Virus record (IMG/VR): IMGVR_UViG_3300029288_000080 | Coordinates: 1 to 64,000 of that record | DNA: 64,000 nucleotides | Origin: a virus | Lineage: Duplodnaviria > Caudoviricetes | Reading direction: 5' to 3' (one strand) | Part shown: positions 645 through 43,470 of the stretch, piece after piece | Position numbering within the stretch: position 1 is the first letter of the stretch | How the letters are laid out: the number at the start of each line of letters is the position of its first letter | The notes under the pieces: model-generated | Told to the model about the DNA's origin: nothing | What the model saw: only the letters and a program-made list of their open reading frames with translations | Databases searched by the model: none | Position numbers and translations under genes: made by a program

Positions 645-848
645 ATGTCACAGGAAACCACCCCGAATATCGCACTCGCTGCTGTCCTGGGCCTCATGGC
701 CCCTTACCTACCTGAGCATCCAGGGGAGCCAGTGTTACCCCTCACCGAGGAAGAGCAGGCCCTGGCCGACAAGATCCGAGACCAACGGATTTCGGCCGCC
801 GAGGCCAAGCGGCTCCGCCGGCAGGCCAGGAACCTGAAGAATCAGTAG
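645..848 (+). CDS. hypothetical protein, paralog of 401..613
   Basis: shares AAEAKRLRRQARNL. Confidence 0.65.
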   Translation: MSQETTPNIALAAVLGLMAPYLPEHPGEPVLPLTEEEQALADKIRDQRISAAEAKRLRRQARNLKNQ

Positions 849-10371: not shown

Positions 10372-11715
10372 CTACTGGGCCTCGTCCTCCGTGATGATCG
10401 AGAGCTGCCCGCAGGCCGCCCCTGCGGTAATCTCAGCCTCGGTTGCCTGATCGTAGGCGTAGCCATCCTGTCGGTGAAGTGCAACACAATAACGGTGACT
10501 GACATCCCCGATGCCTGCAAGCTTAAAACTTCCCGAGACTCGGGTGGAAATTCGGGCTACATGGGTTCCGGCAAACTTTCCCTTGGGTACCACGGCCTTG
10601 ACGATGTCACCGGTGCGGAAGCCAAAATGTGTCGCTTGTCGGGTTCGGTGACGCACGGGAAAACCAAAACGGTCGGTCCCGCACATTCGTCGGGAACCGT
10701 GACCTGTGGCTTTAATTAATAGAGGCTTAGTTTCGGAATCCAAGACAACCGAGGCGCCAGAGCCCCCAACACAGGCAGCATCAATCCAGTGGGCCTTGGG
10801 ATAGTGTTGCTTGGCTCGATTGAATTTGGTCTGTGCGCCGGTGCCAACTTCTACCGAAAGTCCGGTGGAAGTCAAAACCGCTAGCAAAGCATTTCGCGTA
10901 GTGTTGACCGCCGAGGCATCGCGGAGCGGACGTTTCGCTTGGGCCAGGATTTTGGCCAGGACCGCTGGTTTGTTCTTCAAAAACATTTCGACGGGAAGCT
11001 TTCCTTTGCGTTCATTACAATCATGGCAAGCCAGCGTGAGGTTAGAAAGTCGGTTGCTGCCGCTCGACACTTTTGGAACAATATGTTCCACTTCAAAGGG
11101 AACATCCTTGGCCCCACAATAAGCACAGGTACGGTTCCATTTCTCCAGCAGGTATTCTTTGACCGTGTAGCCTTGCAGGGTACCCTGTTGGTATTCGGCG
11201 CCGGAAACTTCCGGGTTCTGCATCAGTTGCATATCAAACTTTATGCGTTCAACCGAAATACCCGTTACGTTGCAAAGTCGTTGGAACTTTTTCACCCACG
11301 TCATAATCGTGAGAACGCGGTGCTGAAGGCTTGGAGGTAACCAGCCTGCGGAACGAGTACGGTTAAGGAACCGTGGTTTACGATATCGGGTTTTCCGGTT
11401 ACGCCGGCTATGTCGGATAGTTTTCCTGGATTCCAACTTAGCTTTGATCGCGGAACCCCTGTGTTCTAACTCTGCCGCGAATAAAACTTTTCCTGCAGGC
11501 CCCACCAGCGCGATCCCGGTAACTTTGCTCCCAGGGTCAAGCTTAACCACCACGGGTGTAACGATTACTTCGGATTTTGTTTCCTTCAGGATAATGGTGA
11601 AGGGGTAGCGGCGCAACACTGCAGCCCTGCCCGACGAAAGCAGCGTCCTGGCTTCACCAGGATGCACTGGATCCAGTGGACGCCGATCATGGTCTAGTAC
11701 AAAACCCAGTTGCAT
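10372..11715 (-). CDS. iscB: IscB RNA-guided endonuclease
   Basis: PLDP (PLMP-like) N-terminus, RuvC-I LDPGSK, RHSRRNRKTRYRKPRF bridge helix, HNH (CAYC..EHIVP..N..LACHDCN), HWIDAA. Confidence 0.95.
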   Translation of the reverse strand: MQLGFVLDHDRRPLDPVHPGEARTLLSSGRAAVLRRYPFTIILKETKSEVIVTPVVVKLDPGSKVTGIALVGPAGKVLFAAELEHRGSAIKAKLESRKTIRHSRRNRKTRYRKPRFLNRTRSAGWLPPSLQHRVLTIMTWVKKFQRLCNVTGISVERIKFDMQLMQNPEVSGAEYQQGTLQGYTVKEYLLEKWNRTCAYCGAKDVPFEVEHIVPKVSSGSNRLSNLTLACHDCNERKGKLPVEMFLKNKPAVLAKILAQAKRPLRDASAVNTTRNALLAVLTSTGLSVEVGTGAQTKFNRAKQHYPKAHWIDAACVGGSGASVVLDSETKPLLIKATGHGSRRMCGTDRFGFPVRHRTRQATHFGFRTGDIVKAVVPKGKFAGTHVARISTRVSGSFKLAGIGDVSHRYCVALHRQDGYAYDQATEAEITAGAACGQLSIITEDEAQ

Positions 11716-11962
11716 CAAAAGATCTCTCCGCTCACGCGGGTAATGTTTTCCTCGCCGATGTCCGGGAAGCTTTTTACACGCAAGACCTTCGCGGTCTCCC
11801 CAGGGACCACAGCATGATCTTGCGCGACAGAGCCACGGACTGGAAAGCATCCGTAGGTGTCGTGACTTCTTGGACGTAGATCGAACAGGGTTACCCGTCC
11901 TTTCTCGGGCTGGTCATGAACAGGGGTTTCAAGCCCCCGAACATAGTCGTGGGGTTCATGAC
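10452..11962 (-). mobile_element. non-autonomous IS200/605-family IscB element
   Basis: removing 10452..11962 restores an in-frame ORF (L)DPRPLP-DQATEAE...; no tnpA present. Confidence 0.7.
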
Positions 11963-11989: not shown

Positions 11990-12018
11990 ATAGTAAGACG
12001 AGTGGCCCCGGGAGTCAA
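11990..12018 (-). promoter_or_regulatory. sigma70-type promoter reading into omegaRNA/iscB
   Basis: TTGACT-17-TACTAT. Confidence 0.7.
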
Positions 12019-12045
12019 GTGGTTATTTTGGGCATGGGGGTCGAG

Positions 12046-12067
12046 ACTGAAGAAGTTGTCGTGATGT
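12046..12067. repeat. inverted repeat, downstream arm bracketing the tRNA array
   Basis: ACTGAAGAAGTTGTCGTGATGT is the reverse complement of 18294..18314 with one extra A. Confidence 0.85.
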
Positions 12068-12082
12068 CAGGTGGGAAAGAAA

Positions 12083-12154
12083 CGGCCCAGGTAGGTGCTG
12101 CCCCCACTACTTTCCGGTTAACTGCCGGACACTCTGCTGGTGAGTTACTGAGCC
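12083..12154 (-). tRNA. tRNA-Asn(GTT), atypical (A33)
   Basis: TCCGG-CAGTTAA-CCGGA; T-loop GGCAGCA. Confidence 0.7.
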
Positions 12155-12157
12155 AGG

Positions 12158-12847
12158 CTAGTCGCGATATTTTTTGAAGTCACGGACAAAATTGGTTTTT
12201 ATTATACGTTGTCTCTCTTCCTCACTGGGTCGTGTGCGGTAGAACTTAGTGGAGCATGTTCTGTTGCAACATTTAGGGCGATTTTCGTGTACATTGTTTG
12301 CCATGTAATACCTGCGTTCCGCTTCAATGTGCTTGCCGCAAGCAGGGCAAACTACTTCTACCCACGCTGCCCCTTGCTGTTTTCCATGCTCCACGGCGTG
12401 TTCTCGTAGGGTCATGATAGTTAGGTTTTCCAACCTATTATCCAGTTTGTCTCCGTTGAGATGGTGGACTATTTCGTCGGATCGCAGCAGACGGCCAAGA
12501 TGCTGCTCCATGACGTACCGGTGTTCAAAAATGTACCGGCCTTCGATGTAGGTTCGGCCCAGATAACCTGGGGGCTTCTGCAACATCCAGCGGCCGTCGC
12601 TGCTGATGAGCCGTTCTTTCTTTCTCCCGATGCCAAGACGTTTCTTTTCTTTGGCGATTCTGGCAACGCGCTGCTTTTTTATCTTGACCTTGACTTCTTT
12701 GGGCACCCTGGTGGCTTCAGTGATGTCACGGACCCAGGTGCTCACCGACGACTTGGCCACCTGAAGGTGCTGGGCTATCGCCAGCAAAGTCCAGCCAAAT
12801 CGGCGCAGTTGTCTCGCTTGACCCATTTCTTTGGTTTTGCTTATCAT
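12158..12847 (-). CDS. HNH homing endonuclease with N-terminal HTH
   Basis: EHRYVMEQHLGR..VHHLNGDKLDNRLENL; AGGAGG SD. Confidence 0.9.
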   Translation of the reverse strand: MISKTKEMGQARQLRRFGWTLLAIAQHLQVAKSSVSTWVRDITEATRVPKEVKVKIKKQRVARIAKEKKRLGIGRKKERLISSDGRWMLQKPPGYLGRTYIEGRYIFEHRYVMEQHLGRLLRSDEIVHHLNGDKLDNRLENLTIMTLREHAVEHGKQQGAAWVEVVCPACGKHIEAERRYYMANNVHENRPKCCNRTCSTKFYRTRPSEEERQRIIKTNFVRDFKKYRD

Positions 12848-12910
12848 GTGAACCTCCTGGTAAAGATTAACGTGGAAGTTCACGTTCATTAGACCGAGGA
12901 GGCAAACCAA

Positions 12911-12982
12911 AGGGCCCTACCCGAGTCGGACGGGTATCTCGCCGGTCGTAGCGGCGGCTCTTTCCCCTTGAGTTAAGGGCCC
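12911..12982 (-). tRNA. tRNA-Arg(ACG)
   Basis: CGCCG-CTACGAC-CGGCG; GGGCCCT/AGGGCCC acceptor. Confidence 0.75.
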
Positions 12983-12993
12983 AGGAAATAAGA

Positions 12994-13066
12994 TGGCCGG
13001 AGAGGAAGTTGAATCCTCAGCCTCGGACGTAAGAAGTCCTTGCTCTGCCAGTTGAGCTATCCAGCC
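12994..13066 (-). tRNA. tRNA-Lys(CTT)
   Basis: GGAC-TTCTTAC-GTCC; canonical D-arm. Confidence 0.8.
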
Positions 13067-13078
13067 GTGGAAACTATC

Positions 13079-13160
13079 TGGTGCGCCGTACAAGACTCGA
13101 ACTTGTAAAAATTTTCCACTTTAGGAGAGTGGTGGGTTATTCCAATTTCCCTAACGGCGC
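13079..13160 (-). tRNA. tRNA-Arg(CCT) with encoded CCA
   Basis: CCACT-CTCCTAA-AGTGG; TTCGAGT T-loop. Confidence 0.85.
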
Positions 13161-13188
13161 AGGCAATATTATAATGAAATCAAACAGT

Positions 13189-13260
13189 TGGGGCCACCGG
13201 AGTACGATTCCGGGCAGCCAACTTAAAAGGATGGTATGCTCCCAATTACATCATGGCCCC
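13189..13260 (-). tRNA. tRNA-Lys(TTT)
   Basis: CCATC-CTTTTAA-GTTGG; T-loop ATCGTAC. Confidence 0.75.
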
Positions 13261-13279
13261 GTAGTTTTTGACTCGGGAC

Positions 13280-13567
13280 TCACGTTTCTTCCTGGTTGGC
13301 ATCGGGTTCCTCCTGGGTCTGTTCTTCCTGGTTGATCTCGGCCATGATTTCCGCCCGGGTGGGCCCTTCGGTGCGGCGCCGATGGCCCCCGCAGACAATG
13401 CAGGAGCAAGGCTTCCGGGCCGACAGATGCATCCTGACGGTCAAGTCCTCGACCTCCTGGGCCGTCTGGGTCTCAGTCTCGCTGATCCAGAAGATTTCGT
13501 GGGCCAGGCGGCGCCAGCGACGCTGCAGCCGAGTAACCTGGGCACGACGGAAATCTCTGGTCCTCAT
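13280..13567 (-). CDS. Arg-rich small protein with CSCxxC motif inside the tRNA array
   Basis: MRTRDFRRAQ..RKPCSCIVCG; own leaderless promoter. Confidence 0.7.
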   Translation of the reverse strand: MRTRDFRRAQVTRLQRRWRRLAHEIFWISETETQTAQEVEDLTVRMHLSARKPCSCIVCGGHRRRTEGPTRAEIMAEINQEEQTQEEPDANQEET

Positions 13568-13602
13568 GGGGACATTTTACCAGTGGCCTCAGGGGATGTC
13601 AA
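13568..13602 (-). promoter_or_regulatory. sigma70-type promoter, leaderless
   Basis: TTGACA-17-TAAAAT, 6 nt to ATG 13567. Confidence 0.8.
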
Positions 13603-13604
13603 GA

Positions 13605-13678
13605 AGGGCCTGGCCGGATGTGCGCCGGCGACCAACGGTTTAGAGGACCGCCGTTCTATCTTGCTGAACTACAGGCCC
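13605..13678 (-). tRNA. tRNA-Arg(TCT), C33
   Basis: GCGGT-CCTCTAA-ACCGT; T-loop CGCACAT. Confidence 0.75.
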
Positions 13679-13683
13679 AGAAC

Positions 13684-13771
13684 AGGAGGATACTGGATTT
13701 GAACCAGTGGAGGCTTTGGGGCCTCTCCGGGTAGCAGCCGGATCGCTTAAACCTGACTCGCGCAATCCTCC
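13684..13771 (-). tRNA. tRNA-Ser(GCT)
   Basis: TCCGG-CTGCTAC-CCGGA; long variable arm. Confidence 0.9.
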
Positions 13772-13776
13772 AAAAG

Positions 13777-13850
13777 GGTGGACGACCGAAGTTGAATCGG
13801 CAACCTCTGCGTTCACAGCGCAGCGCTCTAACCAGTTGAGCTACGTCCAC
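13777..13850 (-). tRNA. tRNA-His(GTG)
   Basis: CTGCG-CTGTGAA-CGCAG; C73. Confidence 0.9.
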
Positions 13851-13851
13851 A

Positions 13852-13923
13852 AGCGGCTGGGGAACAACGATTTCCCACCTTGGGGGCGGAGGCCCCAAAT
13901 GCTGCCAATTACACCACAGCCGC
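13852..13923 (-). tRNA. tRNA-Gly(TCC), C33
   Basis: TGGGG-CCTCCGC-CCCCA; GCG/CGC acceptor end, U73. Confidence 0.75.
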
Positions 13924-13935
13924 AGAAACAAAAAG

Positions 13936-14008
13936 TCGGGAATGCCGGAGTCGAACCGGATCCTAAAGATCCCAAATCTTTCGTGCAACCACTTACACCT
14001 CATTCCCG
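13936..14008 (-). tRNA. tRNA-Pro(TGG)
   Basis: AAAGA-TTTGGGA-TCTTT; C1-G72, A73. Confidence 0.9.
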
Positions 14009-14013
14009 AGATA

Positions 14014-14850
14014 CTATTTATTTTTATTTCGTCTCCGCAGGTCACGTGTCGCCTTGGCGTGTGCCGCACGACATTCTGGACACCTACATTTTCTATAGTG
14101 GTAGTTGGAGTTAGTACCGTGTACTTGGGGTTTTGCTGGTCTTCCGAGAGGACCTTTGCCTGTGTAGTATTTAGCGGAGCATTTTCTGGAGCAAAAATGG
14201 TGAACACCGCGAAAGAATCGTCTGCTTCGTGTGAAGGGAGCACCGCACTGCTCGCAGGTCGTGGTCACCCACGCATCAGGATGGTGCCGCTTTTTATGTT
14301 CTGCATTGTCCGCGAGTAACTCTAGGTTTTTGATGTGGTTATTGCGCTTATCCCCATCTATGTGGTGCACGGTCTCTTCGTCGGTTAGGTCCCGCCCGAT
14401 GTACCGTGACATGACGTAACGATGCTCCAGCACCCTCCCACGTTTGTCAGCCATTGGGTGGCCCGGCACCAAGATGTACACATAGTCACCAACACCCGAA
14501 CTTTCGGTCTTGAACCCCAGGACATATCTAGACCAGCGGGTCCGTTTATTGGTTCCTGGTCTAGGACCTTGCCCCAGCGATAGATTTTTGCGCGACTGCT
14601 CTTGATTATTTTCCCAGTTTTTCTTGCCCCACGCTACTCGGAGTTCTCGGGGAACGGCACGCCCGATCTTGGCGGCGTTGTCTCGCCGTTTTTGCATGAG
14701 CCGTTCCTGTTGTTCCGGAGTCAACACGATGTCGCGCAGCATGTAACTTAGGGTGCTGCGGCCAATGCCGAGTCGGGCATGGATTTCTTTGTAACTGTAG
14801 CCTAGGAGGCGGAGAGCACGGGCTTCTTTTCTGAGTGGGTGGGGCTTCAT
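14014..14850 (-). CDS. HNH homing endonuclease with N-terminal HTH
   Basis: EHRYVMSRYIGR..VHHIDGDKRNNHIKNL; Zn fingers. Confidence 0.9.
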   Translation of the reverse strand: MKPHPLRKEARALRLLGYSYKEIHARLGIGRSTLSYMLRDIVLTPEQQERLMQKRRDNAAKIGRAVPRELRVAWGKKNWENNQEQSRKNLSLGQGPRPGTNKRTRWSRYVLGFKTESSGVGDYVYILVPGHPMADKRGRVLEHRYVMSRYIGRDLTDEETVHHIDGDKRNNHIKNLELLADNAEHKKRHHPDAWVTTTCEQCGAPFTRSRRFFRGVHHFCSRKCSAKYYTGKGPLGRPAKPQVHGTNSNYHYRKCRCPECRAAHAKATRDLRRRNKNK

Positions 14851-14935
14851 GGCGGGTTTTCTCCTGGGAGGAGTTGTCCTCCACTAGAGATTAACGTCAT
14901 GCGGACCTACGTGTTCCCGTGCCCAACCGATTCTT

Positions 14936-15007
14936 TTCCGCTGCCAGGATGCGCGCCTGGAACAAGGCTTTCAGAGAGCCCCGTGTTACTGGTTACACCA
15001 CAGCGGA
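14936..15007 (-). tRNA. tRNA-Gln(CTG)
   Basis: GGGCT-CTCTGAA-AGCCT; U1-A72. Confidence 0.8.
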
Positions 15008-15011
15008 TCAG

Positions 15012-15083
15012 TGTTGGCTAACGGAGTCGAACCGATATCTGGGCGGTATGGGCACCCTATGCTTGCCATTACACCAAGCCAAC
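15012..15083 (-). tRNA. tRNA-Met/Ile2(CAT), C33
   Basis: GGGTG-CCCATAC-CGCCC. Confidence 0.75.
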
Positions 15084-15087
15084 GGAA

Positions 15088-15159
15088 AGCTGGTGGCCGG
15101 GGATGATCCGGCGGCTCCTGGTTACGAAGCAGGTGCTTTCCCAGTTAAGCGACACCAGC
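15088..15159 (-). tRNA. tRNA-Thr(CGT)
   Basis: CCTGC-TTCGTAA-CCAGG; T-loop ATCATCC. Confidence 0.75.
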
Positions 15160-15162
15160 GCA

Positions 15163-15234
15163 AGCCGACACCCGGGTCTGGGCCGGGACCGCAGCCGTAC
15201 CGGGGCTGCATTCTGCCAGTTAAACTATGTCGGC
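15163..15234 (-). tRNA. tRNA-Thr(GGT), C33
   Basis: CAGCC-CCGGTAC-GGCTG; T-loop CCCAGAC. Confidence 0.75.
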
Positions 15235-15238
15235 GAGA

Positions 15239-15313
15239 AGCACCGGGCAAGATTTGAACTTGCGATAAACGGAGGTTGCAGCTCCGCCCCTTCGGCCACT
15301 CGGGCACCGGTGC
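15239..15313 (-). tRNA. tRNA-Cys(GCA)
   Basis: CGGAG-CTGCAAC-CTCCG; U73. Confidence 0.9.
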
Positions 15314-15324
15314 AAGAATCAAAA

Positions 15325-15395
15325 TGGAGCATAAAAGAATCGAACTTTTATTTCCACGGTGCGGACGTGGTGTTCTCCCATTGAACGAATGCCCC
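15325..15395 (-). tRNA. tRNA-Ala(CGC), C33
   Basis: CCACG-TCCGCAC-CGTGG; G3:U70 identity pair. Confidence 0.85.
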
Positions 15396-15399
15396 AAGA

Positions 15400-15471
15400 A
15401 GCGGATTACGGGGTGCGCGCCCGTGCCTGAACCCTGGCAAGGTTCTGTGCTGCTGATTACACCAAATCCGC
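15400..15471 (-). tRNA. tRNA-Gly(GCC)
   Basis: GAACC-TTGCCAG-GGTTC; U73. Confidence 0.8.
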
Positions 15472-15475
15472 GTGA

Positions 15476-15559
15476 CGGTGAGAAGGAGAGTCGAACTCCT
15501 GTGGGGTTGCCCCCGCGCGGGGTCCAGCCGCGTGCCATAGGCCACTAGGCGATCTCACC
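15476..15559 (-). tRNA. tRNA-Ser(GGA)
   Basis: CGCGG-CTGGACC-CCGCG; long variable arm; G73. Confidence 0.85.
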
Positions 15560-15563
15560 AGAG

Positions 15564-15635
15564 TGGGTCCATCCCGCGTTGCACGGGAATCACAGGATCT
15601 TCAGTCCCGCGCTTTACTCTTTAAGCTATGGACCC
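15564..15635 (-). tRNA. tRNA-Phe(GAA)
   Basis: CGGGA-CTGAAGA-TCCTG. Confidence 0.8.
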
Positions 15636-15640
15636 ATGGA

Positions 15641-15731
15641 CGGTGGGTGCAGGGTACGATCCTGCAGAACCCCGATCAAGAGGTTCACCTACGTTCGAAA
15701 TAGGCGCCTTATCCATTTCAGCCAACCCACC
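15641..15731 (-). tRNA. tRNA-Ser(CGA)
   Basis: CCTAT-TTCGAAC-GTAGG; long variable arm; G73. Confidence 0.8.
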
Positions 15732-15734
15732 AGA

Positions 15735-15805
15735 CGGGCCTAACGAGAATCGGACTCGTGTCTCGCGGTAGACAGCCGCGCAGGATACCACTACCCCATA
15801 GGCCC
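15735..15805 (-). tRNA. tRNA-Asp(GTC)
   Basis: CGCGG-CTGTCTA-CCGCG; G73. Confidence 0.8.
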
Positions 15806-16780
15806 AACCGACGTATACCACCAGAAATGTCGTACTCCTGGTGTGCAGTTTTGTCTTTCTACTTTCCCGGCGTACACCTTCGCCCAATAACCTGCCTTGG
15901 GCGTCTCTATACTATAGTTTCTGCACCATTTGACGACTGCGTTGCCGCTTACGCCGAAATAAGTGGAAATGGTACTGATCGGCTGCTCCCACACGAGTCG
16001 TCCGAGCACTACGCTACTGGGGCGCTGTGTTTTTCTACTATTTTTACCAGCACACGTGTACGAGCAATATTTAGCCGCACCATTACCTTCTTTATTTCTG
16101 AAGTGTTCACCACAGGTTAAACAGATAGGTAGAGTAGTGCATTTCTCCGCGTTGGACTTCGCCCTATACTGTTGCGTCCTACTGGGTTGACACTTTTTAG
16201 TGCAATATATTTGTTTAATACGCTTTGTTTTATACTTTGTTGCACACGTAGGACACGTTTTTATTGTGTACTGTTCGGTGTATTGCTCTTCGTTTTTCTT
16301 TTTTATGTTTTTACCCGCGAATGTTTTGGTTTGCGTATGGCAGTTGGGACAAAGTAGACTCAGGTTTGCTAGTCTGTTGTCATTACGCACACCATTTATA
16401 TGATGTAGTTGCAAAGTCAGTGGCATGTCGTTCCACGTGGGTAGCAGGCCACAAGCGGCGCATTTGTTATCCAGCAAGCCTACAAATAGTATTTTACTTT
16501 TTAAGTCGCTATTAGCAGTGCATGCTGAGTGTTCTACGAGAACAGAAGAAAGGCTTTGCATTACTGTTTTGCGGTCTGCGGGTTTTCGTTGGTAGAAGTG
16601 ACTTGTGTCCACCCCTTGTTTTCGCGCACGCTGCCTAATTGTGGCAGCGGTCGACCCTCCTGACCCACCGTAGCCCAGGTCAAGTCTTGCTGTATTGAAA
16701 CTATTGTTGCGTGCGATGACGGCGGCGAACGCTTCATTGCTCAACGCCCAGATCGTGCTGCGCTTCGCTCTATTGGCCAT
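15791..16780 (-). CDS. HNH homing endonuclease, multi-Zn-finger, C-terminal HTH
   Basis: LQLHHINGVRNDNRLANLSLLCPNCHTQT; stop lies inside tRNA-Asp. Confidence 0.9.
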   Translation of the reverse strand: MANRAKRSTIWALSNEAFAAVIARNNSFNTARLDLGYGGSGGSTAATIRQRARKQGVDTSHFYQRKPADRKTVMQSLSSVLVEHSACTANSDLKSKILFVGLLDNKCAACGLLPTWNDMPLTLQLHHINGVRNDNRLANLSLLCPNCHTQTKTFAGKNIKKKNEEQYTEQYTIKTCPTCATKYKTKRIKQIYCTKKCQPSRTQQYRAKSNAEKCTTLPICLTCGEHFRNKEGNGAAKYCSYTCAGKNSRKTQRPSSVVLGRLVWEQPISTISTYFGVSGNAVVKWCRNYSIETPKAGYWAKVYAGKVERQNCTPGVRHFWWYTSVGPMG

Positions 16781-16859
16781 GGTACAGACACCCGTGGGCA
16801 GTCTTTGCCCACTATAAGTTAAGGTGTCCTGGACACTTGAACCGAAACATGAAAAAGAA

Positions 16860-16940
16860 TGGCGAGGGCTGGATTTGAACCAGCAAAGCCGAAGCGTCCG
16901 ATTTACAATCGGATGGGTTAAACCGTTTCCCTACCTCACC
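16860..16940 (-). tRNA. tRNA-Tyr(GTA)
   Basis: TCCGA-TTGTAAA-TCGGA; variable arm. Confidence 0.9.
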
Positions 16941-16955
16941 GAAAATCAGAAACAA

Positions 16956-17031
16956 TGCCTGCGGGCAGAGTCGAACTGCCAACTACGGCTGTCTGAGAAC
17001 CGCTCCTCTAGCCTATTTGGGATACGCAGGC
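16956..17031 (-). tRNA. tRNA-Leu(CAG), short variable loop
   Basis: CGGTT-CTCAGAC-AGCCG; A73. Confidence 0.8.
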
Positions 17032-17036
17032 AAACA

Positions 17037-17070
17037 TGGTCCCGGCTGGACGCGACCCAGCACATTGACA
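17037..17070 (-). pseudogene. 3' remnant of a tRNA (T-arm plus acceptor 3' strand)
   Basis: GCTGG-GTCGCGT-CCAGC-CGGGACCA; no anticodon arm upstream. Confidence 0.45.
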
Positions 17071-17081
17071 CCTCTGTTCGT

Positions 17082-17912
17082 CTACCGCGACGAATGTATT
17101 CCATATTGTCTACACCATTTAGCGACGGTATTGTCTGATACTTTAAATATTTTTGCTATCTTTTTGAAAGATTTTTCAGCGACTAACTGTTGTAGTTTTT
17201 CTGCGGAAGGTCTAGCCACCTTTCTCCGAGATATTTGTGCACACTCCTGTGAGCAATATACTTGTTTTTTGAATAATGCGTCAAAGGTAGCCCCGCACCG
17301 CGGACATTTTTTAACCTTCATGCTCATAAGGGAGAGACGCTTCTTTTTATATGTATTTTTTACTCGCTTTATCCAGCGCAGAATGTACGCTTCGTCTACG
17401 TTGGGTTGCTGACCTGCCATTTGTTGCACGGTAACGGCCGTATCTTTTTCGGCTTTGTAATACGTGCGGCTGTCTTCATAATACACCGCTATTTTTCCTA
17501 TTTTCTTCCCCACCCTAGCCGCCCCATATGCCCCCTTGCATCTGTTTCCGCAAAAAGGACCCGCCATCTTTCTACGCTGCTGTTCCCACAATACGCGTGG
17601 GAGTTGCTCAAAATTTCTACCGCACCACACACATTGTACCTGCGTCATTACACAGCGTAGGCTGTCGTCAGCACTGTGTCGTCCATTAGGAACAATGCGT
17701 AGATTGCTCCAAGCATTATCCGTAAAGTCCCCATTTATGTGGTCTATCGTTTCCGTTTTACGGTCTAACTCCCGGTTGAGCAGTACCTCCACCAAGAATT
17801 TAGGATACGATTTGACCGTTCGCCGCCCGTCTTTAAAATAGACGACGATGTTTTTCCGCCCACTTCCACGGTCAGTGTATGGACCGTAGATATTGGAAAT
17901 TTTTCCACGCAT
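17082..17912 (-). CDS. HNH homing endonuclease, C-terminal HTH
   Basis: ETIDHINGDFTDNAWSNLRIV; AAGGAGG SD. Confidence 0.9.
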   Translation of the reverse strand: MRGKISNIYGPYTDRGSGRKNIVVYFKDGRRTVKSYPKFLVEVLLNRELDRKTETIDHINGDFTDNAWSNLRIVPNGRHSADDSLRCVMTQVQCVWCGRNFEQLPRVLWEQQRRKMAGPFCGNRCKGAYGAARVGKKIGKIAVYYEDSRTYYKAEKDTAVTVQQMAGQQPNVDEAYILRWIKRVKNTYKKKRLSLMSMKVKKCPRCGATFDALFKKQVYCSQECAQISRRKVARPSAEKLQQLVAEKSFKKIAKIFKVSDNTVAKWCRQYGIHSSR

Positions 17913-17971
17913 GGTGCGAACCTCCTTAGCATTTCATTCTACACTAATAGATTAAGGTGGTTGCACTGAAG

Positions 17972-18045
17972 TGGTCCGGGCGGGACTTGCACCCGCAGAA
18001 ACATGGCCCTCGACCATGCGCGTCTGCTGATTGCGCCACCGGACC
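17972..18045 (-). tRNA. tRNA-Leu(GAG), short variable loop, C33
   Basis: CATGG-TCGAGGG-CCATG; A73. Confidence 0.8.
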
Positions 18046-18064
18046 AAACTGCACGAAACGTGTC

Positions 18065-18136
18065 TGGGCAGTATCGGGATTGAACCGATGATCTTCCGGG
18101 TGTTGACCGGATACTCTCCCACTGAGCTAACCGCCC
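18065..18136 (-). tRNA. tRNA-Val(AAC), C33
   Basis: TCCGG-TCAACAC-CCGGA; Val-like GGGCGGTTAGCTCAG body. Confidence 0.85.
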
Positions 18137-18140
18137 TGGA

Positions 18141-18213
18141 TGTGCCTGGAGGAACTTGAATCCCCATAGTACCGCCTATCGAGCGGTCGCCTTACCTATT
18201 AGGCCACAGGCAC
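18141..18213 (-). tRNA. tRNA-Ile(GAT), C33
   Basis: ACCGC-TCGATAG-GCGGT. Confidence 0.8.
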
Positions 18214-18221
18214 GTGGTCAA

Positions 18222-18288
18222 CAGCCCACTGGAGGATCGAACTCCACCGATGACCTTTGGAGGGTCGTCTGCACCCAGTGCGTGGGCT
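18222..18288 (-). tRNA. tRNA-Trp(CCA) with minimal D-arm
   Basis: GACC-CTCCAAA-GGTC; D-arm GCAC-TGG-GTGC; G73. Confidence 0.8.
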
Positions 18289-18293
18289 AATCT

Positions 18294-18314
18294 ACATCAC
18301 GACAACTCTTCAGT
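18294..18314. repeat. inverted repeat, upstream arm bracketing the tRNA array
   Basis: ACATCACGACAACTCTTCAGT is complementary to 12046..12067. Confidence 0.85.
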
Positions 18315-18324
18315 TTTCAAAGCA
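18311..18324 (-). promoter_or_regulatory. rrn boxA-like antitermination element
   Basis: TGCTTTGAAAACTG resembles rrn leader boxA (e.g. TCTTTGAAAACT). Confidence 0.6.
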
Positions 18325-18488
18325 GCCAATCAATCCACCGAGGGGGTCCTGGCGGGCCAGGGAACAGTCGTGACCATTCCATGGGTTCCACCAGGGCGGT
18401 GCCGTCAAGGTCCCTACTCGTCGCCTCCCATCCTGTCTCCCTCTCGACCTCCGCGCCTCGGCATCCATCGGGGCCCTTTGTGGGCCAG

Positions 18489-18526
18489 AAAACAAAAAAG
18501 CCACCCGAGATTTCTCTGGGGTGGCT
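18489..18526 (-). terminator. intrinsic terminator (attenuator) upstream of the tRNA array
   Basis: AGCCACCC-CAGAGAAATCTC-GGGTGGCT followed by TTTTTGTTTT. Confidence 0.9.
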
Positions 18527-18568
18527 CCGGTTCGGTCGTTTCGTCTAGGTCATCCGGGAGCCACCCCG
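18518..18568 (-). promoter_or_regulatory. antiterminator helix, mutually exclusive with the terminator
   Basis: GGGGTGGCTCCCGG (18567-18554) pairs with CCGGAGCCACCCC (18530-18518). Confidence 0.85.
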
Positions 18569-18708
18569 TTCGGATCGCAGGACAGATAATTGTGCGAAAA
18601 CCAACTATCATGTCCTGCGGTAATTGGGCACATGGTACGCCCGAGACCCTGGGGGCAACCCGTGCCCTGGGGCTTCTGCGTCGTGACCATGTGGACTTTT
18701 CTCAACAT
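18550..18708 (-). CDS. attenuator leader peptide, 52 aa (below the ORF-track cutoff)
   Basis: MLRKVHMVTTQKPQGTGCPQGLGRTMCPITAGHDSWFSHNYLSCDPNGVAPG*; last codons cover the antiterminator strand. Confidence 0.75.
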   Translation of the reverse strand: MLRKVHMVTTQKPQGTGCPQGLGRTMCPITAGHDSWFSHNYLSCDPNGVAPG

Positions 18709-18743
18709 GCAGTACCAGTACCTTGCCCCGACGGGTCCGTCAA
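18709..18743 (-). promoter_or_regulatory. sigma70-type promoter for leader and tRNA array, leaderless
   Basis: TTGACG-17-TACTGG (imperfect -10), 6 nt to ATG 18708. Confidence 0.6.
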
Positions 18744-18812
18744 GGGGTTTTTACTGTTTTTCGTGTAGTAATTTGGTTTGGTGGTCCCCAGACCGTTCGC
18801 TGACGATATTTC

Positions 18813-18847
18813 TTGACTTCCTGGTGGTAGACCGGTAAAATCCTTCC
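18813..18847 (+). promoter_or_regulatory. divergent sigma70-type promoter
   Basis: TTGACT-17-TAAAAT, 6 nt to ATG 18848 (10-codon uORF). Confidence 0.75.
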
Positions 18848-18905
18848 ATGGTGCGGTCGAGGTTGACCGCAGCGCCTTGAGGGTTCAGGGCTACAGGAGC
18901 GACAG

Positions 18906-19553
18906 ATGTACGGTGTGGAACGCCCACGGCTATTTTTCCCCCGTTTGCTCGCGCTGGGCCAAGAGGTCAAGAGCGCCAACGGTTCAGTACCGCTGTACCG
19001 ACTTGGCTGGGAACAGTTCGACGCTGCCTTGGCTGCACCCACAGTACCGGCCACAGGCTTAGTTACTCCCCGGCCTCAAACAAGGCCCTCGCTACTCTGT
19101 GCTCCACGCAAAACCTGGTTGGACATGTTGATCTACGCGGTCCCCCAGCACTACCGGGTTGAAATCCGTAGGTGCTGTCGCGAAGCCGTAGCAGAACGTG
19201 AACGTCATCTCCCGTTTCCCAAACAAGTCAAGGACCAGATGCACCGTAGCACTGAAGCTCTGGTTCACATGGCCCTGTTCTTGACCGCCGATTGTCTCTA
19301 CGACACCATGGCCAACCGCTACTCCCGCGGCCCCGACCGTTGTGTGGTTCTACCTTGTCTACTGCTTCGTTTTTGGGAGCATCAGGTCACTACACCTAAT
19401 GGTGCTGTTGATCTATGTGGAGTGCTGTACAACGAGCCATTGCAAGGCCGAAACCCGGCGGAGCAAGAAATTTTTGCAACATTACGCGCCGAGGTGACCC
19501 AGCGGCGACTTGAAATGCAACAAGCACAAAGCACAAACGGAAAGGACGCCTAA
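18906..19553 (+). CDS. hypothetical protein
   Basis: AGGAG SD. Confidence 0.6.
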   Translation: MYGVERPRLFFPRLLALGQEVKSANGSVPLYRLGWEQFDAALAAPTVPATGLVTPRPQTRPSLLCAPRKTWLDMLIYAVPQHYRVEIRRCCREAVAERERHLPFPKQVKDQMHRSTEALVHMALFLTADCLYDTMANRYSRGPDRCVVLPCLLLRFWEHQVTTPNGAVDLCGVLYNEPLQGRNPAEQEIFATLRAEVTQRRLEMQQAQSTNGKDA

Positions 19554-19555
19554 AT

Positions 19556-22500
19556 ATGATAACGTTAGTGGCAGCCATACTATTCGCAGCCGCCGTATTA
19601 TTCGTAGCAGGAGCGCTCGAAAGACTCGACGGTAAGTGCATCTCGCACGCACGACTTTTGCGGGCGCCACCGCTTCCCAGAGACCTAACGACGCACGCAC
19701 ACGCGCAAAACGCAAACACGGCAAGGGCGGAAAAATATAGTTTGGCAGAGGTCGCCGAAATTGTGGACTGGCTGGATGAAAGCTAGAAATAGAACCAGGA
19801 CTATTGAAACTTCAAACCCAAAGTATGGCCGGCACGCTTCGGCGCCGAGCAATAGAAAATGTGGCTCGTGCCATCCAAACAGTTACCTGACGAAAGGACA
19901 CGAATCATGACGCCGGCATGGTGGAAAACCTATCGGGAAATTTTGCTAATGAAGACCAAACGACGTGGCTTTGAGGTAACGTTGAAGCCAGTAGTGTCGT
20001 GTCCTAACCTAGACCCCGACATCTGGGCGCGGGACCAGCATGGCGCGATCATGGTGCTGCGCCAAGGGTGTGAAAAAGGTGTCAAATGATCGATGCCGTG
20101 TCTACTGTCCTGCTTGGGCTGGGCGTACTTATTGTGTTGAACTTGCTAATGGTTATGCTTTATATGGTTGCGCATAAAATTTGCTACTGGTTGCAGTGGT
20201 GCTGGAGACAAGTGTACAGGCGCGACTATCATAATTTTAACAGGAATAATCCTACGGAGTCACCTCCGATAAGCAACAAACAGGAAAAGGAAGGCTAGAC
20301 AATGACAAATGAATTTCACACCGATACGTCTTCTATGTCAGTGGACATCTTTGGCCGCTGCTCTATGCAGGGCACGGAAGTAACTTATAAAGCGCAGCAC
20401 TCCAAGGTGATGGTGCAGTTTGAGCCACAGGCAAACGGCCGCTGGCGAGTCTTCATTGACCCGTTCCAAGATAAGCAGTCAGACCCTCCTCGCGTGATCC
20501 CCGACGATCTCCTAGTAGTGCACAGCGTAGAGACTCCTAACAAAAGCCGCCCTAAAGCGGGCAGCGTGTTACGGGTGCTACGGGTAGCAGGAGTGGAAGA
20601 CGATAACGAAGTACACCAGGCCACTTATATAGGAACCCGCTGGATTGATGTCGTGGTGGAGACCTTAGACGCCAAGTTTAGTTACACTGACAAAACCATC
20701 GTGATTGGAGCCCTGTCATGACCAAAAAACAATTGGCAAAATGGAAGCAGCAGATGCAAGAAATTGCGGCAGGCGGTGACCCGGAGATCGCGCACCCTAG
20801 AGCCGATGACTTGCTTTGCGCTATCCTGCGTGAACTCGGTGCTGGGGAAGTAGCAGATATTTTTGACGCCATGGACAAGTGGTATGTGCAGCTACAGGAG
20901 GACTAGCTATGACCCTAGAAATACAGCGAGGGCTGCTTGAGATCGTAGAGCAACGTAGTCGTCGTGATTTTAGACGCCAGTACGAGGAACGCTTTCCGAA
21001 TGATCCTCTTCCACCTGGATGCGATGATTCGGAGACACGGCCGCTTAACCTTCCATGGCCATTGATCCCAGAAGATCTGGAGGATTAGCCATGAGCGTCG
21101 AGACTACAGGCATGGGCAGGCTCAGGTTCACTGCTCATTATTTCTGGAACCTGATTTGGCATGGACGTTGGGCAGATCTGGCTAACGCGGTAAGTGAGAA
21201 ACTCCACTACGGCACTATACCACCGGACCGTTGGCTGTTCCCTTATTTCGCCGCTGACTACTTGCTGCCGCGCCTGCGGGCCATGAGAGCGTGCAACACA
21301 AAACCACCACGAAGTCTTGTGAGCCTTGACTCCCCAGATGAGTGGCACCAGACCCTGGATGATATAATTTTCGCCTTTGAAACGGTCTACGCCGCCGTCC
21401 CCCTGGCCAGCGCAGATGGAAGCGTGGATATCTTGGACGAACTCACCAGCGAGCGGGTGCTGCGAGGTTTTGCACTGTTCGGTAAACACTTCATACACCT
21501 ACATGGCTAACGACATGAAACAAGAAGCTAACCCACTACAGTGGTATAGGTTAAGCCTGCGTCTGATCATGGTCAGAGCTGGCTTGGCCACTATAGACGC
21601 TGACGGCAAAATGACGCCCACAGCGAAAGGAAACCATTTATTCCGTCCCCAGTTTTGGAGCAGTGCTGAATTTCAAGGTAAGGATGGGAAGGAAAAATCA
21701 CTGTGATGGAAGAAACCACAAACCCAAAAACGGCGGACCAGCAGTGTATCAAACCAGTACCAACACTGGCCTTCCTTTACCCACAAGGTGTTGATGATTA
21801 CGAAGTGTTGTGGCACCGACGACTCAGTTGTTACCATGACAACAACCAACGACGTTCTGCGCGGCCTGAAGGTTAAGTTACCCGTGTTTATTTTCATCTA
21901 TGCTGTCGTTACCACTATGGCGGTATTCCTGTGCAGTGTGTACTTACAAAACGGTTGGTCTCTGCTCAGCCCCTTTGTTATGGCTGCGCTTATGCTGACT
22001 ATGCTGGCACACCAACACCGACTCATTGTCACTAAACGTAGGTGCAAGGAGCAGCTCCGTCAAACCAAGTGGCTGATGAAACATTTGCACGATGCCGTGC
22101 TGTGCAAACGCCGCTACCGTACCTGTCTGGATCAAGAAGTGTCAGACGTACTGACTGGTCGCAAGGAGTTGTAGGGCCGGCCATGGATACCCTTATTTGC
22201 CTTGTGCCACTTATTTGTTTCTGGCTGCTTGTTTGGCCGTACTGCCGCTACAAGGGAGATGAGTAATGAGCAAACGTAAATTCGCCGTCATCATGACAAT
22301 TGTGTTTACACTAGCGTTATTGACGGCTGCACTTAGCTTCTGGCTAAAGGTGTATTTCCACAACCACGTGTTGCACTAAATAGGGCATACCAATCGCCAA
22401 AGGACGCAGCTATGAAACAAGAAAAAGCAAACTCCACGGACAGCGATTACTCCAACCTTCTCGCCAAGGCCAGAAAGGAGAATAAGGAGCCGTGGTTGGC

Positions 22501-31987: not shown

Positions 31988-33654
<1,667 letters not shown>

Positions 33655-41997: not shown

Positions 41998-43470
41998 ATG
42001 GCTTGTAAGTTTACCCCGACGTTCATCGCGGAATTTCCTCTCCGGACCACCGAGGCCGACGAGGTAGAACTGTCCGTCAGGATGGAGGCGGCCCGCCATA
42101 TTTACAACGCCTGTTTGGGTGAGTCACTGCGGCGGCTTGCTCTGATGCGGGAGTCCAAAGCATGGCAGGCCGCCAGGAAACTGCCCAAAAAGAAACGCAC
42201 CGAGGCGTTCAAGGCGACCCTAGAAAAGTTTGGCTTCTCACCGGCTTCCATCCAGAAATTCGCCGAGCAATGCCGAGACGCCTGTTGGATCGGGGACCAT
42301 CTTGGCTCCCACGACACCCAGACCACCAGCCTCAGGGCTTTCAAGGCTGTACAGCAGTATATGTTCGGGAAACACGGTCGCCCTCGATTCAAAGGGTACA
42401 ACAGGCTCCACAGCGTTGAGGGCAAAGCTAACGACGTAGTTCGTTTCAGGGTTGTACATGAGGTGCCCATGATCTTATGGGCTGGATTAGTGCTGCCATT
42501 GTTACTGGACCCACAGGACCGAGGTGGTTGGCAAGCCCAGGCCCTTAAATGCAGGACAAAATATGTCAGAATACTGCGCCGTACTATCGGGACCACAACC
42601 AGATGGTACTGCCAATTGATCCAGGAAGGCACAGCCCCGAGGAAAGCGCGACACCCAACAGGTGACGGAACTGTGGGTTTGGACATCGGGCCCAGCACCA
42701 TCGCGATCGTGGCACAGGACACCGCTCAGTTGGAAACCTTCTGCGCTGGTATAGAGCCACCAGCACGGAGGATCAAGTTGATCCAGCGGGCCATGGACCG
42801 ATCACGCCGTGCCACCAATCCCCAGGCGTACAACCCAAATGGTACCCATCGCCGGGGTGCACGGGCCACCACCAAATCCAAGCGGTACCGCACTTTAGCG
42901 GCCGGAAAAGCCGATCTTGAGCGTCGTCTGGCCGCAGAACGCAAATGCGCCCAAGGCGAACTGGCCAACCGGGTCCTGGCCTTGGGCAACACGGTCAAAA
43001 CGGAGGCCGTGAGTTATAAATCTTTTCAGCGCAATTTCGGACGTAGCGTGCAGTGTAGGGCTCCCGGTATGTTTATCTCGATCCTCAAGCGCAAGGCTGA
43101 AAGTGCCGGTGCTTCCGTGACGGAGTTTTCCACGTACCACACGAAGCTCTCGCAGTTTGACCACATGACTGGTCAGTGCAAAAAAAAGCCACTGAGCCAG
43201 CGGTACCATGAATTTCCAGACGGTACCAGAGTGCAGCGCGATCTGTACTCCGCGTGGTTGGCCCGCTACGTTGAACACGATCGACTCGACGTTTCCCAGT
43301 TGAAAACCGACTGGGCGGCTGCGGAACCGCTGCTGCGACAGGCGGCGTCGAGTTTCAACCAATCTGCGAGTAGGGGAGGCTCTGCCAACCCTTACGGTCC
43401 TGACCGTCAGAGCGGATCGTCTGTCAAAGAGGTAAAGCCGTTTCGTCGAGGCCACGGAGGTGTAGCGTGA
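41998..43470 (+). CDS. tnpB: TnpB RNA-guided nuclease (IS200/605 family)
   Basis: RHIYNACL, GRPRFK, RuvC VGLDIG / KTE / QRDLYSA. Confidence 0.9.
   Translation: MACKFTPTFIAEFPLRTTEADEVELSVRMEAARHIYNACLGESLRRLALMRESKAWQAARKLPKKKRTEAFKATLEKFGFSPASIQKFAEQCRDACWIGDHLGSHDTQTTSLRAFKAVQQYMFGKHGRPRFKGYNRLHSVEGKANDVVRFRVVHEVPMILWAGLVLPLLLDPQDRGGWQAQALKCRTKYVRILRRTIGTTTRWYCQLIQEGTAPRKARHPTGDGTVGLDIGPSTIAIVAQDTAQLETFCAGIEPPARRIKLIQRAMDRSRRATNPQAYNPNGTHRRGARATTKSKRYRTLAAGKADLERRLAAERKCAQGELANRVLALGNTVKTEAVSYKSFQRNFGRSVQCRAPGMFISILKRKAESAGASVTEFSTYHTKLSQFDHMTGQCKKKPLSQRYHEFPDGTRVQRDLYSAWLARYVEHDRLDVSQLKTDWAAAEPLLRQAASSFNQSASRGGSANPYGPDRQSGSSVKEVKPFRRGHGGVA

Follow-up and report, generated by a model that had tools for sequence, protein, structure and literature searches.

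Leader-peptide attenuation, the general mechanism of which is textbook knowledge (PMC5314783, PMC1262725), controls amino-acid operons of enterobacteria such as those behind trpL, hisL, leuL, thrL, pheL and ilv by means of a promoter-proximal open reading frame (ORF), a terminator and an antiterminator that excludes it. A ribosome at the stop codon leads to the terminator, and a stalled ribosome to the antiterminator; actinobacterial amino-acid operons also have such attenuators (PMC1262725, PMC11857589). Full-text literature searches returned no paper on attenuation of tRNA genes or of phage tRNA arrays. The element considered here is a candidate attenuator on the minus strand of an uncultured phage, at positions 18489-18743 of the window, which is the first 64 kb (64,000 nucleotides) of virus record IMGVR_UViG_3300029288_000080 (full record 177,603 bp, 58% G+C). 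The evidence inclines slightly towards a ribosome-operated attenuator at the head of the main tRNA array, which would turn early array transcription down when the leader is translated promptly and up when decoding is slow.

The locus has in common with the amino-acid operon attenuators the order of ORF, terminator and exclusive antiterminator and the presumed effect of ribosome position, and a predicted helix between its segments 0 and 1 resembles helix 1:2 of the trp leader. It differs from them in that no codon run for a single amino acid is present, the targets are tRNAs instead of biosynthetic enzymes, the element is phage-borne, the mRNA would be leaderless, and the predicted default of the untranslated transcript is mixed or readthrough rather than termination. 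Upstream ORFs of the bmrCD, vmlR and lmo0919 type are attenuators that sense general translation inhibition and control resistance genes in Firmicutes. They also have no amino-acid-specific codon run, and any stall shifts the balance towards readthrough; unlike the present locus with its phage tRNA genes, they respond to drug-stalled ribosomes and serve resistance genes. The class of ribosome-mediated attenuators sensing translation inhibition is mentioned in PMC5314783.

T-box riboswitches likewise sense tRNA status through the choice between terminator and antiterminator, but they bind uncharged tRNA directly and do not need an ORF. No Rfam match to the T-box (RF00230) was obtained at E<=10 in 18250-18900 (651 nt) or at E<=1 in 12000-20000 (8 kb), and the same searches gave no match to the Trp, His, Thr and Leu leader families or to riboswitches. 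The sole Rfam hit was terminator-like (BjrC68, 15.9 bits versus a gathering score of 39). The role of phage tRNAs is itself an open question, with codon compensation and escape from tRNA-targeting defences both under discussion (PMC10264068).

In the proposed mechanism, transcription from a host-type promoter (TTGACG-17-TACTGG) would begin directly with the ATG that opens a 52-codon leader ORF. The last five codons of this ORF would serve as the 5' arm of an antiterminator, which rivals an intrinsic terminator for the shared segment CCGGAGCCACCCC. A ribosome moving close behind RNA polymerase and standing at the end of the ORF would cover that arm; the terminator could then fold, ending most transcripts about 200 nt short of the first tRNA. 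Translation that lags, is stalled in the first ~45 codons or has not started would leave the arm free; the antiterminator could then form and transcription would read through into the array. Thus, slow decoding would lead to more transcription of tRNA genes. In this scheme it is inferred where transcription starts, that the ORF is translated and that ribosome and polymerase are coupled, as are the efficiency of the terminator and any physiological signal. If the mechanism is true, the phage gauges ribosome decoding and tunes its own tRNA supply, and the conditions opening the switch would reveal the purpose of the array, giving a regulatory handle on why phages carry tRNAs. The elements in question are the following.

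18738..18743, minus strand: -35 element TTGACG, with an A-rich tract before it, as at other promoters of the phage
18715..18720, minus strand: -10-like element TACTGG, 17 nt past the -35 and 6 nt ahead of the ATG at 18708
18550..18708, minus strand: leader ORF, 52 codons plus TGA (18552-18550), predicted to be leaderless, with the start codon at the very 5' end of the RNA
18669..18688, minus strand: segment 0 (codons 7-14), predicted partner of segment 1 and the stop-codon region in the terminator state
18576..18667, minus strand: two strong hairpins within the ORF (18667-18626 and 18619-18576)
18554..18567, minus strand: segment 1, the antiterminator 5' arm GGGGTGGCTCCCGG (codons 48-52), 1 nt ahead of the stop codon
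18518..18530, minus strand: segment 2, the shared arm CCGGAGCCACCCC, partner of segment 1 or of segment 3
18488..18506, minus strand: segment 3, GGGTGGCT (18506-18499), and a T6GT4 tract, forming an intrinsic terminator with segment 2
18315..18487, minus strand: purine-rich spacer of ~170 nt from terminator to array, structure not significant (z=-1.75)
12911..18289, minus strand: the unit proposed to be regulated, containing 26 tRNA genes found by ARAGORN and/or Rfam

The final codons, GGG GTG GCT CCC GGA TGA, include GGGGTGGCTCCCGG, which is complementary to CCGGAGCCACCCC; the preliminary description of the locus had proposed this pairing of the last codons (G-V-A-P-G-stop) with the terminator 5' arm, and it was confirmed at P<=4e-4. 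The antiterminator duplex reaches -29.1 kcal/mol, compared with -13.2 +/- 2.4 kcal/mol in dinucleotide shuffles of the upstream 109 nt, none of which attained this value (0/3000); of random windows of the same genome, only 0.04% did (P=4e-4). The antiterminator pairing is not due to chance, and its motif has no other occurrence in the genome. The intrinsic terminator (18529-18488) consists of an 8-10 bp G+C-rich stem followed by T6GT4, with a stability of -18.5 to -21.9 kcal/mol, and it is correctly oriented and positioned for the minus strand, between leader ORF and array. Folded alone, the competing helix of segments 1 and 2 has -26.3 kcal/mol against -21.9 for the terminator, and the two are mutually exclusive, as in known attenuators.

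Folding of both conformers, which had been suggested earlier as a check, was performed on the RNA that begins at 18708 and extends through the terminator stem. The energies are nearly equal: -91.5 kcal/mol for the fold with terminator and 0:1 helix versus -89.9 kcal/mol for the antiterminator fold. The predicted fold corresponds to the four-segment layout of classical attenuators. In it, the long-range helix formed by segment 0, which is a fold prediction only, would act as a protector of segment 1, akin to helix 1:2 of the trp leader, and the two hairpins within the ORF could possibly be pause or timing elements for RNA polymerase. The leader as a whole is strongly structured (folding z=-5.3).

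The stop codon lies 1 nt past segment 1 and 20-22 nt before segment 2, depending on whether the latter begins at 18530 or 18528. The consequence of this spacing was evaluated in a model in which a 29-nt ribosome footprint was masked at each codon and pair probabilities were computed; it describes equilibrium only and ignores folding kinetics. The results for the terminator helix were as follows.

A site at codons 45-53, including the stop: P(terminator) 0.95-0.98
A site at codons 20-44: P(terminator) 0.02-0.55
A site at codons 4-19: P(terminator) 0.00-0.08
No ribosome: P(terminator) 0.38, P(antiterminator) 0.50

In this model, a terminating ribosome blocks the antiterminator and spares the terminator; the ORF thus has a position in which translation to the end would promote termination, and a stall early on would promote readthrough. 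The earlier statement that a stall at almost any codon frees the antiterminator is not supported by the model, in which the outcome is mixed at codons 20-44 and termination at codons 45-52.

The leader ORF has the place expected of an attenuator leader, that of a short 5' ORF upstream of the regulated genes. Its previously reported properties (18708-18550, 52 codons, 35 distinct codons, 19 amino acids) were reproduced, glutamate being the absent amino acid. The predicted peptide is rich in G, P, T, Q and C, and a family search in Pfam and PHROGs gave zero matches. ORFs of this size are common in the genome (597 of 45-70 codons). Placement from the transcript start to the window of ~8 codons in which a ribosome would mask segment 1 and not segment 2 has a chance expectation of ~5%, a figure that is our own estimate from stop-codon frequency.

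The promoter was found as previously proposed, with TTGACG at 18743-18738, TACTGG at 18720-18715 and the ATG at 18708 of the minus strand. Genome-wide, an ATG at +6/+7 follows 14 of the 39 sites of the form TTGACN-17-TANNNN, whereas 1.03 would be expected (P=6e-13). This ~14-fold excess bears out the remark that other promoters of the phage share the leaderless geometry, and the promoter-then-ATG layout is a real class in this phage. Examples are the sites at 610, 31988, 40446, 46631, 121440, 127953, 159325, 173230 and 174142 (plus strand) and at 13602 and 7734 (minus strand). Credible genes stand behind such promoters, namely a 543-aa Cas3-HD gene and several protein-like small genes; a 47-aa protein without a family match could be of the ribbon-helix-helix type, judging from a reading of its sequence. 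The class implies that leaderless mRNAs are widespread in this phage and that its host is able to translate them. The site at 18743 appears to belong to it, including the A-rich tract. The earlier caution about the -10 is upheld: TACTGG ends in G and is among the weakest -10 elements of the class, although other leaderless promoters here also have TAnnnn without the final T. A promoter at the second CCTTGACGG (18410) was considered and rejected because no usable -10 lies at 16-18 nt. The minus-strand -35 is overlapped by a plus-strand hairpin followed by T5ACTGT5 (18725-18770). This hairpin may be an operator-like palindrome, or it may act as a weak terminator that stops antisense transcription leaving the array.

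An analogous arrangement occurs in Caulobacter phage phiCbK (JX100813.1), in which depositor-annotated rho-independent terminators stand directly ahead of three tRNA blocks. One leader is the subject of the comparison below.

JX100813.1, 51305-51502: tRNA-block leader ahead of the Phe-Val-Ile-Ile-Val-Gln-Gln block

This leader comprises TTGACA-17-TAGGGT, 7 nt, an ATG and a 32-codon ORF, whose codons 7-15 encode QFVRQIQVV by means of codons read by the 7 tRNAs that follow. Within the ORF, the terminator 3' arm has a near-copy, which gives an antiterminator duplex of -36.5 kcal/mol (P<1/1000). Records of Shapirovirus, Poindextervirus and Bertelyvirus all retain the ORF (31-32 codons, core QFV(R)QIQVV), with synonymous changes. 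CcrSC carries a C-to-T substitution in the 5' arm of the terminator, for which G-to-A changes in the 3' arm and in the leader copy compensate, at the cost of an Ala-to-Thr substitution in the peptide. The two further annotated terminators of phiCbK precede the Glu/Asp and Pro/Pro blocks. No publication on the tRNA-block leader was found in the literature searched. These comparisons give good support to leader-peptide control of phage tRNA genes in at least one group of cultured phages, whose promoter/ATG geometry is the same, and this raises the prior for the present locus.

Both leaders possess a sigma-70-type promoter, an ATG 6-7 nt past the -10 and a short ORF in which the terminator 3' arm is nearly repeated, followed by the terminator and the tRNA genes. 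They show no sequence similarity and are analogous, not homologous. The phiCbK leader has 32 codons and a clear core matching its 7 tRNAs, whereas the present one has 52 codons and is generalist in composition; the modelled default of the former is termination, and it is conserved with compensatory change over three genera, whereas the latter is without relatives.

The preliminary description had interpreted the generalist leader as a codon-sampling device, and this part fared less well. Codon diversity was compared with gene windows, similar-size ORFs, composition-preserving shuffles and any stop-free window; 35 distinct codons (P 0.10-0.63) and 19 amino acids (P 0.06-0.19) are at chance level, and the coverage of the array is only nominally significant. 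A cognate or wobble codon in the leader was found for 24 of the 26 called tRNAs (P 0.003-0.027). The figure of 25/27 given previously is recovered if a tRNA-like cloverleaf with an Asn anticodon is counted (P 0.0016-0.02), and the two uncovered tRNAs, Arg-CCT and Ala-CGC, are those named before. Related measures gave weaker values: the array could read 43 of the 52 leader codons (P 0.04-0.09), and for 18 array tRNAs the leader contains the exact cognate codon (P 0.08-0.21). Regulatory codons do not form a run of the sort seen in attenuators, and the array coverage as a whole stands at P 0.0016-0.03.

Glutamate had been described as the only amino acid missing from both leader and array. The leader is indeed without Glu, but the match of the amino-acid sets (19 shared, Glu absent; P 0.002-0.008) exists only if the Asn cloverleaf is counted, because the 26 array tRNAs in the ARAGORN and Rfam set are without both Asn and Glu. 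The same match is met by 5 of the 405 genome ORFs of 45-60 codons, and a stretch of 52 codons without Glu is unremarkable (P~0.08), as the reservation about chance had anticipated. The one-to-one correspondence of the Ser codons AGT, TCG and TCC with the tRNAs GCT, CGA and GGA is confirmed and likewise unremarkable (P~0.16). From sequence comparison, the leader-array match is suggestive and not a demonstrated design.

It is doubtful that the leader is shaped to sample the array repertoire (25/27 tRNAs, the same 19 amino acids), so that loss of any host tRNA, for example through anticodon-nuclease cleavage, would make the ribosome stall, favour the antiterminator and thereby supply the cell with a nearly full set of replacement tRNAs. 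That phage tRNAs counter tRNA-targeting defences is a published idea (PMC10264068); the defence-sensor reading of this leader, including the suggested connection with nucleases of the PrrC type, is speculative. If it were true, the leader would be a multivalent sensor of decoding failure, with negative feedback once phage tRNAs are plentiful.

The switch would not be the only input to the array. As had been noted previously, internal promoters exist; among the tRNA genes lie three endonuclease genes of the Pfam family HNH_3 and an ORF of 329 aa. The relevant features are given below.

13189-13260, minus strand: tRNA Lys-TTT, within the array
15400-15471, minus strand: tRNA Gly-GCC, within the array
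12080..12157, minus strand: tRNA-like cloverleaf adjoining the inner side of the right inverted repeat; GTT (Asn) anticodon, A33, T-loop non-canonical
14851-14935, 16781-16859 and 17913-17970, minus strand: copies or variants of the ACGTTAATCT-type motif, a putative late promoter, ahead of the HNH_3 genes and the 329-aa ORF

The internal promoter at 13602 (minus strand) is strong: TTGACA-17-TAAAAT with TG, an 11/12 match to the consensus. Late transcription from the ACGTTAATCT-type motifs would enter the array downstream of the switch. The claim that complete translation keeps the array off is consequently not supported as worded, since the promoter at 13602 and the late-motif copies also feed parts of it. 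Because parts of the array have promoters of their own, the switch would chiefly set early expression, especially of the first four tRNAs. The spacer at 18315-18487 contains no convincing promoter and no late motif.

Of the 27 tRNAs reported, 26 were called; the 27th, the Asn cloverleaf at 12157-12080, was called neither by ARAGORN, even at a relaxed threshold, nor by Rfam, and its stability is no better than that of shuffles. The 6.2-kb array is flanked by 21-bp inverted repeats with one extra base (18314-18294 and 12067-12046), which could form an rRNA-operon-like processing stem or be the ends of a mobile cassette. A search for the inverted-repeat pattern in metagenome contigs gave 23 matches, all attributable to chance and none with array similarity.

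The promoter at 13602 heads a leaderless, Arg-rich ORF of 95 codons (13567-13280) using AGG, AGA, CGT, CGC and CGG, which ends 19 nt before the tRNAs Lys-TTT, Arg-CCT, Lys-CTT and Arg-ACG; no terminator intervenes. A leaderless 67-codon ORF at 645-848 (plus strand), with a paralogue upstream at 401-613, ends 29 nt before a tRNA-Gln and Leu tRNA cluster, and no terminator lies between here either.

No leader homologue was found by blastn in INPHARED phages, and patterns of the terminator and of tRNA-Trp had 0 matches in viral_contigs. Gene callers applied to three public assemblies place a plus-strand ORF of 184 aa (or 172 aa; 18214-18768) over the whole leader, the terminator and tRNA-Trp. This ORF was used as a protein stand-in for the leader DNA in a search of 5.8 billion proteins, which returned identical copies only. 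It is probably spurious and masks the control region, because its coding score is negative and its only relatives are these identical copies; automated annotation conceals elements of this kind. The contigs that hold the leader are 99.995-100% identical over 20 kb and represent the same strain in several samples.

Five metagenome contigs carry 93%-identical homologues of the flanking 215-aa gene; in them, similarity ends ~55 nt upstream of the gene (~18850), with unrelated DNA beyond. Every one of these contigs shows a TTGACA-17-TAAAAC promoter of its own, together with a divergent gene that differs from the leader ORF, has 51 codons and is equipped with a Shine-Dalgarno site. The homology break at ~18850 points to recent acquisition of the whole module, which is a lineage-specific mosaic block. 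The 329-aa array ORF, a member of a very large family (19,047 hits) without a Pfam match, has no close relative, and viral_contigs likewise gave nothing. Relatives of the radical-SAM gene (52-65% identical) have small tRNA clusters only. In one distant relative (radical-SAM protein 65% identical; an NCBI metagenome-assembled contig), a tmRNA gene adjoins a small tRNA cluster at contig positions 7241-7588.

The core claim of the preliminary description, that ribosome position selects between terminator and antiterminator, draws support from the pairing, the folding energies, the masking model, the promoter geometry and the phiCbK analogue. Several observations weigh against it. The coding score of the leader ORF is neutral (0.008 versus 0.23 for real genes), no gene caller reports it, and it is without the run of any one codon found in classical attenuators. 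The -10 is weak, and the -35 sits within a hairpin resembling a weak plus-strand terminator. The ribosome-free equilibrium is mixed (0.38 versus 0.50) and stalls at codons 20-44 have variable outcomes; the switch may therefore be leaky. Parts of the array have independent input from the promoter at 13602 and from the late-motif copies that precede the HNH genes. Finally, the search for leader homologues found none, leaving the locus without conservation or covariation, and the nearest relatives are without the module.

Rather unlikely is an ordinary small early unit made of a promoter, a gene for a 52-aa peptide or a small RNA and its own terminator, with the array expressed by delayed-early readthrough. 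The upstream complementary segment would then merely make the terminator leaky, or it would respond to some factor other than the ribosome, for example an antitermination protein of phage or host origin. In T4, the tRNA genes belong to the delayed-early class and are preceded by small ORFs; in the present phage, promoters of the same type head small, real-looking genes, and the two other tRNA groups stand directly behind the leaderless ORFs 645-848 and 13567-13280 with nothing to terminate transcription in between. A plain gene terminator, however, does not need a competitor helix that is stronger than itself (-26.3 versus -21.9 kcal/mol) and ends exactly at the stop codon. The low-complexity peptide without a family match also speaks against a gene proper, as does the fact that no other leaderless ORF in the genome is trailed by a terminator switch, a second attenuator thus not having been found.

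It is quite improbable that the locus is a non-functional by-product of a mosaic junction, with an incidental ORF, incidental promoter-like hexamers and hairpins that are relics or have their role on the opposite strand. The break in homology with the nearest relatives at ~18850, which marks a recently acquired module, would suit such an origin, and so would the abundance of ORFs of this size (597), the weak -10 and the recurrence of the amino-acid-set match in 5/405 ORFs of similar size. Three-way complementarity at P<=4e-4 would be unexpected from drift, though, the geometry fits a promoter class enriched ~14-fold, the terminator has the right orientation and position for the minus strand, and the region is identical in contigs from several samples, albeit of one strain.

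A ligand- or tRNA-operated switch (a riboswitch or a T-box-like element) with an incidental ORF is very improbable: the leader is highly structured (z=-5.3) and segment 1 loosely resembles the T-box motif GGGTGG-N-ACC, but no Rfam family including the T-box was matched in the searches given above, no stem I or specifier-loop architecture is seen, and the ORF and stop-codon geometry would be left unexplained.

The proposed attenuator is located in a 600-bp divergent control region, with the tRNA array on the minus side and early genes on the plus side from 18906. The phage itself is remote from those described: its family-A DNA polymerase has <30% identity to anything in public phage records, where no close relative was found by means of this protein. 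The genome contains IscB- and TnpB-type elements, a Cas3 HD-helicase gene and numerous HNH genes. The main neighbouring features are as follows.

18813..18841, plus strand: divergent promoter TTGACT-17-TAAAAT, driving the plus-strand early genes (215-aa ORF starting at 18906)
10372-11850, minus strand: IscB-like RRXRR+HNH protein
41998-43470, plus strand: TnpB-like protein
32023-33654, plus strand: Cas3 HD-helicase, 543 aa
48887-52621, plus strand: 1244-aa ORF carrying an intein with a LAGLIDADG domain
57971-60052, plus strand: fusion protein with GNAT and NUDIX domains and a weak, sub-threshold PARP-like match

The best cellular matches of the Cas3 protein (~40% identity) are spread over several phyla and do not indicate a single host group.

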